From NCBI GenBank assembly GCA_041641305.1, contig JBEPYN010000001.1:704001-768000 (forward strand): a DNA stretch of 64,000 nucleotides. The letters are read 5' to 3'. Source of the stretch: Nitrososphaerota archaeon. Lineage in GTDB: Archaea > Thermoproteota > Nitrososphaeria_A > Caldarchaeales > Caldarchaeaceae. A program made the position numbers and the translations under genes. Below, piece after piece: positions 28,262 through 57,019 of this stretch (within the stretch, counting starts at the first letter, position 1; each line of letters begins with the position of its first letter). The notes under the pieces were generated by a model. The model was not told where the DNA came from. It saw only the letters and a list, made by a program, of their open reading frames with translations, and did not search any database.

Positions 28262-28309
28262 ATAAGGTTTTTAAATTGGGAGAAAGCTTCTCCGACAAGG
28301 TGGTCGGAG

Positions 28310-29536
28310 CTAAAGCTCGTATGTAGGAACTGTGGTTCAGAATATTCCAACGAGCTGAGAAATGTATGTGACAAGTGTCTCGGGGCCCTTGACGTCGTCT
28401 ACGAAGAGGTAGCGGATGGTCTGCGCAGCAGAATAGCCAACAGTTTTGTCCGCGGTGTCTGGCGATATGCTGAGCTTTTGCCCGTGAAGAAGGAGTACCG
28501 CGTCGACATCGGGGCAGGAGGCACAGCCTTGGTTCATGCACGTGAGCTGGGCCGTGTGATAGGTGTCCGCAACCTCTACATCAAAAACGACACGACAAAC
28601 CCCTCCTTCTCCTTCAAAGATAGGCCGGCGTCGGTGGCTGTCTCGAAGGCGCGGGAGTTTGGTCTCAGGATTGTTGGATGCGCGTCCACGGGCAACCTCG
28701 CCTCGGCCACGGTAGCCCACGCGGCTGCAGCCGGCTTGACGGGGTTCGTCCTCATGCCCGACACAGTCGAGCTCCCGAAGGTGCGTCAGGCCTCGATATA
28801 CGGCGCAAAAGTAATCCTCGTCGACGGCACCTACGACGACGTCAACCGCCTCGCATACCTCCTCGTCGACACAGCTGAAGTCGGAATAGTCAACGTCAAC
28901 CTAAGGCCCTTCTACGTGGAGGGCTCCAAAACCATGATGTATGAAACCGTTGAAGCCCTTGGCTGGCGCGCCCCACAGCACATCGTGGTCCCCATGGCGA
29001 GCGGCGCCCTCTTCGGAGCACTCTACAAAGGACTGCACGAGTTCGAGACGTTTGGAGCCATATCGCATGCCGACACAGTTTTCCACGGGGTACAGCCCAT
29101 AGGATGCTCACCGATATCAACAGCGTTTGAAACAGGTGCGGAGGAGGTTACACCTGTGAAGAAACCTGAGACCCTTGTGAAGAGTCTCGCCATCGGCAAC
29201 CCAGGCGACGGACTATACGCCCTAAACGTCGCCCGTAAAACAGGAGGCAGCTGTCAAAAGGTCTCCGATGACGCCACCGTTGAAGCGGTGAAGCTTCTTG
29301 CAAAGTATACGGGGATTTTCGCCGAACCCGGCGGAGCCATCACCGTCGCTGCGGTCAAGCAGATGAGGGAGAACGGGGTGATCGATGCGGGTGACGAGGT
29401 TGTATGCTGCGTAACTGGCGCGGGCTTCAAGGTTGACGAGGTTGTTGAGCAGGTGAGCGGCCCCGCCTACGTCGTCCCAGCACGCCTCGACAAAATCCTC
29501 GAAACCCTCCAAACCAACCAGCCCCTATCCCATTAA
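28310..29536 (+). CDS. thrC: Threonine synthase (PLP, N-terminal zinc ribbon); no canonical start, probable CTA start
   Basis: Frame open from 28262: (L)KLVCRNCG...CDKCLG...GVWRYAELLP, then NPSFSFKDR, ASTGN; no ATG/GTG/TTG in frame before 28478. Confidence 0.88.
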   Translation, partial: LKLVCRNCGSEYSNELRNVCDKCLGALDVVYEEVADGLRSRIANSFVRGVWRYAELLPVKKEYRVDIGAGGTALVHARELGRVIGVRNLYIKNDTTNPSFSFKDRPASVAVSKAREFGLRIVGCASTGNLASATVAHAAAAGLTGFVLMPDTVELPKVRQASIYGAKVILVDGTYDDVNRLAYLLVDTAEVGIVNVNLRPFYVEGSKTMMYETVEALGWRAPQHIVVPMASGALFGALYKGLHEFETFGAISHADTVFHGVQPIGCSPISTAFETGAEEVTPVKKPETLVKSLAIGNPGDGLYALNVARKTGGSCQKVSDDATVEAVKLLAKYTGIFAEPGGAITVAAVKQMRENGVIDAGDEVVCCVTGAGFKVDEVVEQVSGPAYVVPARLDKILETLQTNQPLSH

Positions 29537-50748: not shown

Positions 50749-51441
50749 ATGTTGAAAGCGGTTTTGTTCGATTTCGATAACACGTTGGTGGATTCGGCTG
50801 CGGTCCTTCCTGTGGCGCAGAGGCGTGTCGCAGAGGAGATTGTCGCCTATTATGGTGGCTCTCTTGATGTTGAGGAGGTTGCACGTGTTGTTGCATGGGT
50901 TGAGCATGTGGTTGAGCGGCAGGGGCTTCTGAACAGGGACCTCATATGGGAGCATGTGTTTCAAAGCCTCGGGCTAAACAATTCACCTCCCGAGGATCAG
51001 CTACGCAGATGGAGCAGCATATACTGGACCGAATACATGAAGGGCCCTCTTTTCCCCGACGCCGTCGCTGTCTTGGAGAAGCTGCAAAACAGGTATGTGT
51101 TGGGTATGGTGACGAACACGGATGGTTTGCCTGGGATGAAGATGCACAGGCTTATGAGAAGCGGGGTTTTCAGGTTCTTCAAGGCCGTGGTAGTGGCCGG
51201 TGAAGATGTTCCCGAAATCAAGCCAAGCCCGAGGCCTTTTCTGCATGCCGCCCAGCTCCTCGGCGCAAAACCTCAGGAATGTATCATGGTTGGAGACGAC
51301 CCCGTCAACGACGTGCTCGGCGCAAAATCCGCCGGAATGGCCGCGGTCCTCCTCGACAGACACGGCGACAAACCCTGCCCAGTCAAACCAGACTACGTCG
51401 TGAAAAGTCTCACAGAGCTTCTGGAATTGCTGGATGCATGA
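50749..51441 (+). CDS. HAD-superfamily hydrolase
   Basis: FDFDNTL, VTN, KPSP, VGDD..ND. Confidence 0.92.
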   Translation: MLKAVLFDFDNTLVDSAAVLPVAQRRVAEEIVAYYGGSLDVEEVARVVAWVEHVVERQGLLNRDLIWEHVFQSLGLNNSPPEDQLRRWSSIYWTEYMKGPLFPDAVAVLEKLQNRYVLGMVTNTDGLPGMKMHRLMRSGVFRFFKAVVVAGEDVPEIKPSPRPFLHAAQLLGAKPQECIMVGDDPVNDVLGAKSAGMAAVLLDRHGDKPCPVKPDYVVKSLTELLELLDA

Positions 51442-51496
51442 GTTGTGGAAAACTTTTTACCCCGGCTGAATCCGTTGTCTCAACGGGTGAGCTAAG

Positions 51497-53170
51497 CTAC
51501 AGAAGTGGGTTGTCTGCGGGGCCTGGCCCTATATCAACACAGTTCCACACCTCGGCACACTCATAGGCTCCGAGCTTTCAGCCGACGTTTTCGCACGCTA
51601 CCTCAGGGCCAAGGGCTACAGAGTTGTCTTTGTCAGCGGCTCTGACGAGCATGGCACACCCATCGAGGTTGAGGCGGCCAAGAGAGGAGTAGACCCACGC
51701 GAAATAACCGACAAAAACCACGCCATCGTCGTCGACCTCTTCAACAAGTTCCACATCTCCTTCGACAACTACACCCGGACACACAACCCAACACACATAA
51801 CCTTCTGCCAAAAATTCTTCAGGAAAATATACGAAAACGGATACATCTACGAGGAGGATGTCAGCCAGCTCTACTGCAGAAACTGTGGAAGGTTTCTGCC
51901 CGACAGGTTTGTTACAGGTGTTTGCCCTTCATGCGGCTACCAACGTGCACGCGGCGACCAGTGCGAGTCATGCGGAAAAGTCCTCGACCCACTTGACCTA
52001 CTCGAGCCACGGTGCAGCATCTGCGGCGAAAAACCCGTCGTAGAATCGAGCAGGCACTGGTTCTTCGACTTGCCCCGGTTTAGCGAAAGGTTGAGAGAAT
52101 GGCTGAACACAAACACTTTTTTGTCTGAGAAGGTGCGGAACTTCAGCCTCAGCTGGATAAGGGAGGGCCTTAAGCCAAGGGCCGTTACACGTGACAACCT
52201 CTGGGGCATTCCCGCACCTTTCCCAGGCGCGGGCAACAAAACCATCTACGTATGGTTTGAGGCGGTGCTAGGCTACGTGAGCGCAACGGTTGAATGGGCG
52301 GAGAAGAGGGGGGAGCCCGAGCTCTGGAGAGAGTTCTGGCTAAGCCCAGACACGAGGTCAGCCTATTTCATCGGCAAAGACAACATACCCTTCCACACAG
52401 TCATCCTCCCCGCCCTCCTCCTCGCAACACATGAGCCATACATCCTCCCACACATAGTCTCGGCCACAGAATACCTCACTTTCGAGGGCAAAAAATTCTC
52501 CAAAAGCCTCGGCGTAGGAATATGGCTCGACCAAGCCATCGCCATGCTCGAAGCCGACATCTGGCGATACTACCTCATCAAGATAAGGCCCGAAACAGGT
52601 GACACAAACTTCAGCTACGATGGGCTGCAGGCGGTTGTCAACTCCGACCTCAACAACGACCTCGGCAACTTCGTCCACCGCGTCCTCACATTCATAAACA
52701 ACAACTTCGACGGAAAAATCCCCGAAGCAACAGATTTGACAGAAGAAGACAAGGCGATGCTGACGGCGATAGAGAAGACATTCAACGAGGTGGATAGCCT
52801 TCTCTCTGAAGCGAGGGAGAAACAGGCCCTCGAAACAGTCATCCAACTCGCCCGCGAAGGAAACGTCTACTTCAACAGGCGGGAGCCATGGCGGCTCGTC
52901 AAGACGAGGAAAGAAGAGGCCGCAACGGTTCTTCACGTGGCTGCACAAGTTTTGAAAGCTCTCGCCCTGCTCCTGTCACCTTTCACACCCGCCACCACGC
53001 ACAGGATACTCGAGCTAATAGGCCAGCGCGAAACAGCTCTAACATGGCTTGGTGAAAAACCATGGCACCTCCCAGCGGGCACACCCATAGCCAAGCCTGT
53101 CCCCCTATTCGAGAAACTCAGCGAAGAGAAGCTCAACGCAATACGTGCAGGCGCTTCATCCGCTCACTGA
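51497..53170 (+). CDS. metG: Methionyl-tRNA synthetase (557 aa); no canonical start, probable CTA start
   Basis: Frame open from 51491: (L)QKWVVCGAWPYINTVPHLGT...SGSDEHG, Zn knuckles, KFSKS; ORF track starts only at internal TTG 52070. Confidence 0.93.
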   Translation, partial: LQKWVVCGAWPYINTVPHLGTLIGSELSADVFARYLRAKGYRVVFVSGSDEHGTPIEVEAAKRGVDPREITDKNHAIVVDLFNKFHISFDNYTRTHNPTHITFCQKFFRKIYENGYIYEEDVSQLYCRNCGRFLPDRFVTGVCPSCGYQRARGDQCESCGKVLDPLDLLEPRCSICGEKPVVESSRHWFFDLPRFSERLREWLNTNTFLSEKVRNFSLSWIREGLKPRAVTRDNLWGIPAPFPGAGNKTIYVWFEAVLGYVSATVEWAEKRGEPELWREFWLSPDTRSAYFIGKDNIPFHTVILPALLLATHEPYILPHIVSATEYLTFEGKKFSKSLGVGIWLDQAIAMLEADIWRYYLIKIRPETGDTNFSYDGLQAVVNSDLNNDLGNFVHRVLTFINNNFDGKIPEATDLTEEDKAMLTAIEKTFNEVDSLLSEAREKQALETVIQLAREGNVYFNRREPWRLVKTRKEEAATVLHVAAQVLKALALLLSPFTPATTHRILELIGQRETALTWLGEKPWHLPAGTPIAKPVPLFEKLSEEKLNAIRAGASSAH

Positions 53171-56023: not shown

Positions 56024-57019
56024 TTACTCTCTTACATAGGGTTTTCCAAGAGCTTTGGGGAATCGTCGGGTGGATGGAAAGAGGGCTAGGACGGCCACGG
56101 TCACTATGTATGGAAGCATCATGATGAAATGGAACGGGACGGCTTCTTTCACTGAAGGCGTCACAACCACGGCGAACGCGAGGCCCTCCGCGAACCCGAA
56201 GATGAATGTGGCCGCGAGGGCAGTCAACGGGTTAAGTCCTGAGAAAACCACGGCGGCCAAGGCTATGAACCCGCGGCCGGCCGTTATCTCCTTCACAAGT
56301 CCTCCGAACCATCCCAGAGGCATGAAGGCCCCGCCCACACCCGCGAGAAAACCGCCGACAATGCTTGCGAAAAGCCTCACTCTGTAGACGCTGAGGCCAG
56401 CCACGTCGACGGACTCTGGTTTCTCGCCCGCGGCTCTCAGCCTGATTCCGAGAAGAGTTTTGTTTAGGAGGAGGTATGCCGCGAAGGCGGCTGCTATTGC
56501 TGTAAGCGATATGGGGCTGACAGCCAGTTCTCCTCCGAGAAGCGGTATGGATATGCGTGGCACGACGAGTATCCTTGGAAAGATGTGGATACCGGGGAAA
56601 GCCCATATCGCCATGAGAAGATACTGGAAAAGGCCGATGGCTAAGATGTTGAGGCCCATTCCGGCGACGACCTGCTCAGCTCTTCCGTAGACGTTTAGAA
56701 TCCCCAGCACACCGCCTATCAACGCGCCAAAAACCCCACCCATTAAAAGCCCCATCAACCCTGACTCAAACACCTCGGCCCAGAAAACACCCGCCACAGC
56801 CGAAATCAGAAATATCCCCTCGATGCCTATGTTGATTTGCCCAGATTTCTCGTTGATACATTCGCCGACGGCTGCGAAGGCGAGAGGTGTCAGGGCGAGC
56901 AGCGCAAACTCTATCAACCTTGTGGGCCTGAGGCCGAAAAAGGACAGCGCATACATCGTCGCTGCGGCGGCTGCAAATCCTATCAATAGCCAGAAAACCC
57001 TAAGACGACGTGGCTTCAC
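56024..57019 (-). CDS. Nucleoside/sugar ABC transporter permease (CUT2)
   Basis: EKSGQINIGIEG, RAAGE, GRGFIALAAV. Confidence 0.92.
   Translation of the reverse strand: MKPRRLRVFWLLIGFAAAAATMYALSFFGLRPTRLIEFALLALTPLAFAAVGECINEKSGQINIGIEGIFLISAVAGVFWAEVFESGLMGLLMGGVFGALIGGVLGILNVYGRAEQVVAGMGLNILAIGLFQYLLMAIWAFPGIHIFPRILVVPRISIPLLGGELAVSPISLTAIAAAFAAYLLLNKTLLGIRLRAAGEKPESVDVAGLSVYRVRLFASIVGGFLAGVGGAFMPLGWFGGLVKEITAGRGFIALAAVVFSGLNPLTALAATFIFGFAEGLAFAVVVTPSVKEAVPFHFIMMLPYIVTVAVLALFPSTRRFPKALGKPYVRE

Follow-up and report, generated by a model that had tools for sequence, protein, structure and literature searches.

The metG locus

The window analysed here is a stretch of 64,000 nt (positions 704,001 to 768,000 of contig JBEPYN010000001.1) from the genome of a hot-spring Nitrososphaerota archaeon of the order Caldarchaeales, whose close relatives carry the names Candidatus Caldarchaeum subterraneum or Caldarchaeum sp. 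It contains metG, the gene for methionyl-tRNA synthetase (MetRS), whose 5' end has no canonical start codon and whose putative initiation codon is CTA. The source genome is 1.66 Mb long, lies in 4 contigs and is 99.3% complete. The features at the 5' end of the gene are as follows.

51447..51461, plus strand: predicted archaeal promoter of metG, a purine-rich GGAAAA resembling a B recognition element and then the TATA-like CTTTTTAC
51485..51490, plus strand: metG Shine-Dalgarno (SD) sequence GGGTGA, complementary to the 16S rRNA 3' end GGATCACCTCC
51491..51496, plus strand: metG spacer GCTAAG, which with A 51490 makes up the 7 nt from GGTG to CTA; its sequence varies among relatives
51497..51499, plus strand: CTA, proposed metG initiation codon, conserved after the SD and homologous to outgroup start codons
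51497..53170, plus strand: metG coding sequence, 557 codons from CTA, with the stop codon at 53168-53170

The metG frame (WPYIN..HLGT, ..KWVVCGAWPYINTVPHLGT..) is open from 51491, in-frame TGA codons stand upstream of it at 51488-51490 and 51467-51469, and its earliest in-frame ATG, GTG or TTG is TTG 52070 at about codon 193, all as described in an earlier reading of the window that was made from the letters alone (the sequence-only reading). A protein begun at TTG 52070 would lack both the HIGH motif and the Zn knuckles of MetRS. The context is GGGTGA GCTAAG CTA CAG AAG TGG, and the last three bases of the SD are the same TGA that closes the metG frame upstream. The whole frame of 559 codons is intact with all motifs present; its translation carries HLGT (HIGH-type), KFSKS (KMSKS-type) and the CxxC pairs of the Zn knuckles, that is, a full class I MetRS, and it matches the MetRS profiles NF001100 (598.5 bits against a cut-off of 587, residues 4-553) and TIGR00398 (563 bits against a cut-off of 336). 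The N-terminus predicted from a CTA start is (M/L)QKWVVCGAWPYINTVPHLGTLIGSE.

The sequence-only reading had considered a pseudogene unlikely unless a second copy existed, and there is no second metG in the genome; the next-best matches are other class I synthetases (E ~1e-7). It had also proposed that the start region be compared with reads. Contigs of an independent public DNA run from another study span 51200-51582 and differ from the window by substitutions at 51237 and 51532 only, so that the two are identical across 51238-51531, which takes in the metG start region, and no indel or substitution lies near the CTA. The start has gone unrecognised in public annotations: the gene call on this contig has metG as a 349-aa fragment only, and public Caldarchaeum MetRS entries either start at differing chance codons (MIARW.., MPRW.., MFKLRW.., MLRW..) or are shortened (MNTVPHLG.., 545 aa; 514 aa).

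SD spacing and promoter geometry

The 16S rRNA 3' end given above makes GGTGA the core SD of this genome. Every GGTG preceding a frame open for at least 150 codons was scored for ATG, GTG and TTG; a spacing of 7 nt gave 42 ATG, 33 GTG and 37 TTG, a spacing of 4 nt gave 5, 14 and 7, and a spacing of 10 nt gave 15, 12 and 10, respectively. A second count, of start codons near the heads of long open reading frames (ORFs), likewise had its peak at 7 nt, with 6 nt next. The CTA at 51497 therefore lies at the commonest SD-to-start distance, and as relatives keep the same arrangement, this placement goes beyond coincidence. The sequence-only reading had likened its spacing to that of two canonical GTG starts in the window, and these, GGTGA-ATAGAT-GTG at 249 and GGTGA-GACACG-GTG at 57019, both on the minus strand, do have 7 nt. 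Genome-wide, ATG, GTG and TTG are nearly evenly used at SD-led starts (see the 7-nt figures), and start-codon usage in this genome is thus unusually permissive.

Genes that have no SD show a TATA hexamer ending 22-26 nt (peak 24) ahead of the start codon; these are leaderless mRNAs, and promoter-proximal genes are mostly of this kind. Starts of the leaderless type (n=190) comprise 111 ATG, 41 TTG and 38 GTG. In metG, 27 nt separate the end of the TATA hexamer from the GTG inside GGTG and 37 nt separate it from the CTA, and relatives have a comparable A/T box 23-26 nt upstream of the metG GGTG; from these distances the metG transcript is predicted to begin at or just before the SD (~51482-51486). 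A leaderless mRNA would have a canonical in-frame start 22-26 nt past the TATA box, whereas in metG the CTA is at 37 nt and the GTG is out of frame. The succession TATA, about 20-28 nt, GGTG, 5-9 nt and ATG, GTG or TTG recurs at the head of eleven canonical genes of this genome, several of which have an SD whose GTG does not lie in the frame of the gene.

Conservation of the metG start in the class

The GTDB class is a single order with 75 genomes, and the 5' end of metG was read in 69 loci. The codon at the start position, with its distance from the SD, is distributed as follows.

CTA 7 nt after GGTG: 27 of 69 loci
CTC at 7 nt: 25 of 69 loci after GGTG, plus 2 after GGGG
CTA at 6 nt: 6 of 69 loci
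CTC at 5 or 6 nt: 4 of 69 loci
TTA: 1 of 69 loci
ACG: 3 of 69 loci
GTG: 1 of 69 loci

The succession GGTG (or GGGG), 5-7 nt and CTA or CTC is thus present in 64 of the 69 loci. The SD is nearly always GGTG (GGGG in 3 loci), and it is lengthened to GGAGGTG or GGAGGGTG in several lineages. No in-frame canonical codon occurs back to the upstream stop in 47 of the 69 loci, and that stop is often the TGA of GGTGA.

The CTA/CTC pattern is common to MetRS types that share only ~39% identity. In families f1 and f2, which have the MetRS type of the window, the codon is CTA in 12 of 12 f1 loci and CTC in 10 of 10 f2 loci; six other invariant Leu columns of the f1/f2 MetRS use 3-4 synonymous codons each, and only 13 of the 116 invariant degenerate columns in f1 use a single codon. 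CTA is a minor codon in this genome (10.6% of Leu codons). CTG and CTT are found at the metG start position in none of the 69 class loci, although several lineages have switched between CTA and CTC. In metG, and in thrC (see below), a non-canonical codon is therefore conserved amid drifting synonymous sites, and the alignment of relatives that the sequence-only reading had suggested as a check finds canonical starts not carried and CTA/CTC conserved at the nucleotide level. One class member (L026) has GTG exactly at the position of the CTA of the others. An SD followed by CTA, with no start codon and with conservation across the class, means that translation must begin in a non-standard way.

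Some Caldarchaeum species have an in-frame GTG or ATG 18-24 nt before the CTA. Its position is not conserved, it lies 12-20 nt past the TATA box, and we reject these codons as starts because they are upstream of the predicted transcript start. Two further groups of loci differ in MetRS type or placement. The three loci of genus g6 (L106-L108) encode a third MetRS type (KRKFYITTAIPYVNA), also without a canonical start, and have ACG 7-8 nt after GGTGA or GGTGG. Locus L070 (G072:C14:12037-12437), which is placed in family f4, encodes a MetRS of the f1/f2 type (73% identity) and has TTA at the start position; its mismatch with the family suggests gene transfer or bin contamination.

The metG start outside the class

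A metG search at the level of the phylum gave 30 loci, 25 of them from other Thermoproteota classes. In these 25 the codon homologous to the CTA is GTG in 12, TTG in 3 and ATG in 2, and the canonical starts lead into the same G/A-K/R-W/Y-V N-terminus; Pyrobaculum, Desulfurococcales and Acidilobus records also have GTG, TTG or ATG at this codon. The position of the CTA is thus the start position, since its homologue is mostly GTG, TTG or ATG in other Thermoproteota. Two of the 25 outgroup loci (the CTG variant, family f6) have GGTGG, 6 nt and CTG, and two have GGAGGTG or GGGGGTG, 7 nt and CTC, in each case without a canonical start. A scan of named records found GGAGGTG, 7 nt and CTC in two named Bathyarchaeia metagenome-assembled genomes (MAGs); in both, an in-frame canonical codon precedes the CTC by a few codons. 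By these comparisons the arrangement is conserved across the class and occurs also in some Bathyarchaeia.

thrC, a second gene with CTA

The genome was searched for coding-like frames that lack a canonical start and are preceded by TATA, GGTG, 7 nt and CTA, and only metG and thrC, the gene for threonine synthase, match; a scan for start-less frames at this distance from the SD had been proposed in the sequence-only reading, and thrC is the gene that it adds to metG. The thrC features are as follows.

28268..28275, plus strand: TATA-like box TTTTTAAA, 23 nt upstream of GGTG, with the same geometry as in metG
28299..28312, plus strand: thrC start architecture GGTGG TCGGAG CTA, with no in-frame canonical start; kept in relatives
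28310..29536, plus strand: thrC (threonine synthase) coding sequence from CTA; TIGR00260 match of 271.6 bits against a cut-off of 167

The context is AAGGTGG TCGGAG CTA AAG CTC GTA TGT, and over 72 codons, counted from the stop upstream to 56 codons past the CTA, the frame is free of canonical starts. Among relatives the succession SD, 6-7 nt and CTA is present in 30 of 30 thrC loci, and the codon is CTA even where the metG of the same genome has CTC. The distance from the CTA to the conserved K-L-V-C motif downstream is 0, 9, 12, 15 or 21 nt, depending on the genus, and this variation indicates that the CTA tracks the SD and not the protein N-terminus. There is no in-frame canonical codon upstream of the CTA in 16 of the 30 relatives; genus g5 has a GTG immediately before the CTA, at a spacing of 4. 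Outside the class thrC has ATG or TTG in outgroup family f5, and an SD and then CTC or CTA in some loci of families f19, f22 and f26, which resemble the named Bathyarchaeia MAGs in their metG 5' ends.

The neighbours of metG and thrC encode a geranylgeranyl reductase family protein, a MarR/ArsR-type regulator, a HAD hydrolase and a biotin ligase; no functional link was found from the gene neighbours of the two genes.

Candidate decoders of the CTA codon

The genome has a single, ordinary initiator tRNA (A1:U72, anticodon CAT). Its Leu tRNAs have anticodons TAG, GAG, CAG and CAA and are of elongator type (G1:C72); no tRNA-Leu with anticodon AAG or UAA was found in the genome. CTA and CTC each have a Watson-Crick Leu partner, since anticodons TAG and GAG are present, and CTT has none, since AAG was not found. 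A GGG/CCC anticodon stem is present in 10 of the 46 tRNAs of the genome and is therefore not distinctive. A dedicated decoder tRNA for CUA was sought and nothing special was found, the initiator being ordinary and the Leu tRNAs elongators. A missing fidelity factor is ruled out, as the aIF1/SUI1 gene is present and starts with ATG. No conserved RNA structure was found in metG between -13 and +75 (alifold -2.5 kcal/mol; z-score of the sequence of this genome -0.4).

We note that several tRNA genes have introns in the region of the D-arm; these were found by the Rfam tRNA model and missed by ARAGORN. One is Lys(CUU) at 651-750 of the window, and the others are elsewhere in this genome, at C2:313694-313807, C2:241420-241533 and C2:41545-41659. 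The identity of the first comes from manual reading, as do those of the three C2 sites, which are Leu(UAG), Leu(GAG) and Leu(CAA).

Interpretation of the metG start

We consider it probable that initiation occurs at CUA (CUC in the sister families), positioned by the SD on an mRNA with a short leader made from the gene's own promoter, and that this is a weak start read by Met-tRNAi or by a Leu-tRNA. The metG mRNA would begin with the SD GGGUGA and would have a leader of ~11-15 nt, its start being placed by the promoter geometry. Pairing of the SD with the 16S rRNA 3' end would then bring CUA 51497, 7 nt downstream, into the P site, where translation would start, with initiator Met-tRNA perhaps reading the CUA through its central U only. 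Such a very weak start may have been retained to tune or regulate MetRS output, and ThrC output likewise, the weak codon being kept by selection against stronger ones; CTG is only one transition away and is never seen in the class. A conserved weak codon would point to regulation, as in infC, and the non-standard start of metG and thrC probably serves that purpose; feedback linked to the supply of Met-tRNAi, as put forward in the sequence-only reading, may be one form of it. The comparative evidence, namely the conservation in relatives of CTA/CTC and of its spacing from the SD, supports CUA as the initiating codon of metG, which the sequence-only reading had put forward from the window alone.

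Several observations weigh against this reading. Neither CUA nor CUC matches AUG at positions 1 and 3, which gives two mismatches to the initiator anticodon; these codons are not single-mismatch near-cognates of the infC AUU type, and only the ACG of genus g6 and the CTG of outgroup family f6 are. In E. coli, codons that are not near-cognates initiate at 0.01-1% of the AUG level (Hecht et al., bioRxiv 10.1101/063800), and low output per mRNA is therefore expected with either tRNA, unless the archaeal system differs. Some in-frame canonical codon is present upstream of the start position in 22 of the 69 metG loci, and in genera g12, g13 and g15 a GTG, mostly that of the SD itself, stands 2-4 codons upstream of the CTA or CTC (CTM) codon; these lineages may start canonically. 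The GTG inside the SD follows the TATA box by 27 nt (metG) or 24-26 nt (thrC), a distance that falls in the range of leaderless starts or slightly above it. All the compared genomes are metagenome-assembled, and the raw reads of two hot-spring metatranscriptome runs yielded 1 read in total, with 90-95% identity, over 801 nt.

Given an SD-positioned CUA, the initiator Met-tRNA is in our view a somewhat better candidate for its decoder than the cognate Leu-tRNA. An explanation in which the SD-bound small subunit accepts a cognate elongator Leu-tRNA (UAG for CUA, GAG for CUC) at the same site is, taken over all the possibilities, unlikely, but it is the most substantial of the alternatives. It would make MetRS synthesis independent of its own product, rising when charged initiator tRNA is scarce, and so would provide a homeostatic fail-safe. 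Elongator tRNAs do initiate in E. coli when initiator tRNA is depleted (Samhita et al. 2013), and Leu-tRNA initiates at CUG in mammalian cells (Starck et al. 2012), both as cited in the review PMC7949028. The codons themselves also fit, as the 64 metG loci have only CTA or CTC and the 30 thrC loci only CTA; CTG and CTT never appear despite switches between CTA and CTC, and CTT is the codon with no Watson-Crick Leu anticodon here. CTG, however, has such a tRNA (CAG) and is nevertheless absent from the class, and the ACG of g6 and CTG of f6 are ordinary near-cognates of AUG; the lone TTA is again a Leu codon, though one whose UAA-anticodon partner was not found in this genome. aIF2 is specific for Met-tRNAi, and the Leu tRNAs here are ordinary G1:C72 elongators whose GGG/CCC stem does not set them apart. 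Nor is there an obvious logic in a rise of ThrC under methionine shortage.

The remaining explanations dispense with the CUA as a start. A leaderless mRNA might begin at the GUG within GGUG (51487) and enter the metG frame by a +1 shift within three codons, or stop at UAA 51493 and reinitiate. The distance of this GTG from the TATA box, the use of GTG by 38 of 190 leaderless-type starts, and its being in frame in the lineages with 6-nt spacing are in keeping with such a start, yet we regard it as improbable. The codons that follow the GTG differ in nearly every genus (AGC TAA, AGA TAA, AGT CGC, GTT TAC, GTC TGA, GTC GGA, AGT AGA and others) and have neither a shift-prone or slippery site nor a rare codon or a stop in common, and the mini-ORF extends over dozens of codons in many species; the +1 slip from the GTG AGC TAA mini-ORF, which the sequence-only reading had offered as an alternative, is thus poorly supported. 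Spacings of 6 and 7 nt alternate within single genera (thrC in g7, metG in g15), so that one species would require a programmed shift that its sister could do without. Complementarity to the rRNA is conserved in the bases that precede the GTG (GGAG, GG), for which a leaderless start would have no use, and in canonical genes of like geometry the GTG of the SD is not in frame. The other alternative in that reading, a -1 shift from ATG 51438, fares no better: the stretch from TATA box to SD, all of which it would require to be translated, is unconserved, its frames carry stops at varying places in relatives, and the TATA box between this ATG and the SD indicates a separate metG promoter. A start at some other non-canonical in-frame codon, such as AAG 51503 or AAG 51494, with the CTA conserved for an unrelated reason, is more improbable still. 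AAG is a one-mismatch near-cognate of AUG and the frame is open from 51491, but the 51503 codon varies in relatives (AAG, AAA, CGA, AGG, AGA) and that at 51494 varies freely, neither is at the commonest SD spacing, and in thrC the CTA keeps to the SD while its distance from the protein motif shifts. An assembly or sequencing error or a decaying pseudogene, for which only the missing start codon and the short gene call speak, is scarcely credible, as the same architecture is present in ~70 independently assembled genomes, the independent DNA run agrees, and the 559-codon frame is intact in the sole metG of the genome.

Other genes without a canonical start

The purB gene (adenylosuccinate lyase; L034:1409-1411, minus strand; C2:60508-60510 of this genome) is without a canonical start for 65 codons. 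It has ATA at the position of GTG in relative G010; the ATA is common to G009 and G011, and distant relatives have ATG or GTG. A TFB gene (L035:128-130; C2:490827) has GGGTGA GGCGCT ATA, with the ATA 7 nt after GGTG, and is without a canonical start before its zinc ribbon. Two genes on the minus strand have CTG 7 nt after GGTGA and then no canonical start, for the next 89 codons in one (L036:1627-1629; C1:667678) and the next 27 codons in the other (L039:897-899; C1:11648). A VapC-like PIN toxin frame (L037:75-494, minus strand) is without a canonical start for 66 codons and may be a pseudogene or another case of a non-canonical start.

Relation to known systems

The bacterial infC gene, which encodes IF3, keeps an AUU start codon for autoregulation by start-codon discrimination. 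Like infC, metG is a gene of the translation apparatus with a conserved, putative non-canonical start codon behind a good SD at normal spacing and with no canonical start. The infC AUU is a one-mismatch near-cognate, whereas the CUA or CUC of metG has two mismatches; the metG host is an archaeon with aIF1 and aIF2 and no IF3, and the gene encodes MetRS and not a fidelity factor, the aIF1 gene of this host having an ATG. Autoregulation, moreover, belongs to infC, and metG is likened to it from sequence. The prfB gene (RF2) uses a programmed +1 frameshift with an SD-like stimulator, and metG resembles it in having an SD-like element just before a possible change of frame, with an out-of-frame GTG one base off the frame of the gene. 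It differs from prfB in that it has no conserved shift site or in-frame stop, and its spacing and frame relation vary among close relatives. In Saccharolobus solfataricus both SD-led and leaderless initiation have reportedly been described for archaea, and both modes are seen in this genome, the leaderless one with TATA ~24 nt before the start and the SD-led one with GGTG and 7 nt; in metG and thrC, by contrast, a short leader apparently opens with the SD.

Initiation in E. coli at codons beyond AUG, GUG, UUG and their near-cognates (10.1101/063800) is similarly led by an SD. It was seen with a reporter, at the low level given above and with no natural gene depending on it, whereas metG is essential, single-copy and class-wide in its architecture. 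Mammalian initiation at CUG with Leu-tRNA and elongator initiation in E. coli, as cited in PMC7949028, would share with the metG case a start at a Leu codon and a possible escape from the need for Met-tRNAi. They concern eukaryotic scanning or mutant bacteria, whereas metG is a case known from its sequence.

Literature searches, which also covered Aigarchaeota start codons, found no published description of a CUA or CUC start or of a non-canonical archaeal metG start. To our knowledge, CUA and CUC are listed as start codons in no NCBI translation table. The metG and thrC starts are best filed as a variant of non-canonical initiation that is not described in the literature found.

Implications

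Gene callers mis-annotate metG in these organisms (as the proteins of 545, 514 and 349 aa), and completeness checks, alignments and structure predictions are distorted in consequence. If the CUA start is real, the list of start codons would grow by one that an essential gene uses and that has been conserved throughout an archaeal class and outside it too. Such a start would offer a natural system in which to ask how far positioning by the SD can replace codon-anticodon pairing on the eukaryote-like archaeal ribosome, and it may bring to light a control, at translation, of MetRS and of the branch point between threonine and methionine. Were Leu-tRNA the decoder, MetRS and ThrC would be made from initiator-independent starts and would have N-terminal Leu; MetRS would still be made when charged initiator tRNA is lacking, its output going up as the initiator ternary complex falls, and the whole would amount to a homeostat that the Caldarchaeales have conserved and that some Bathyarchaeia also have.

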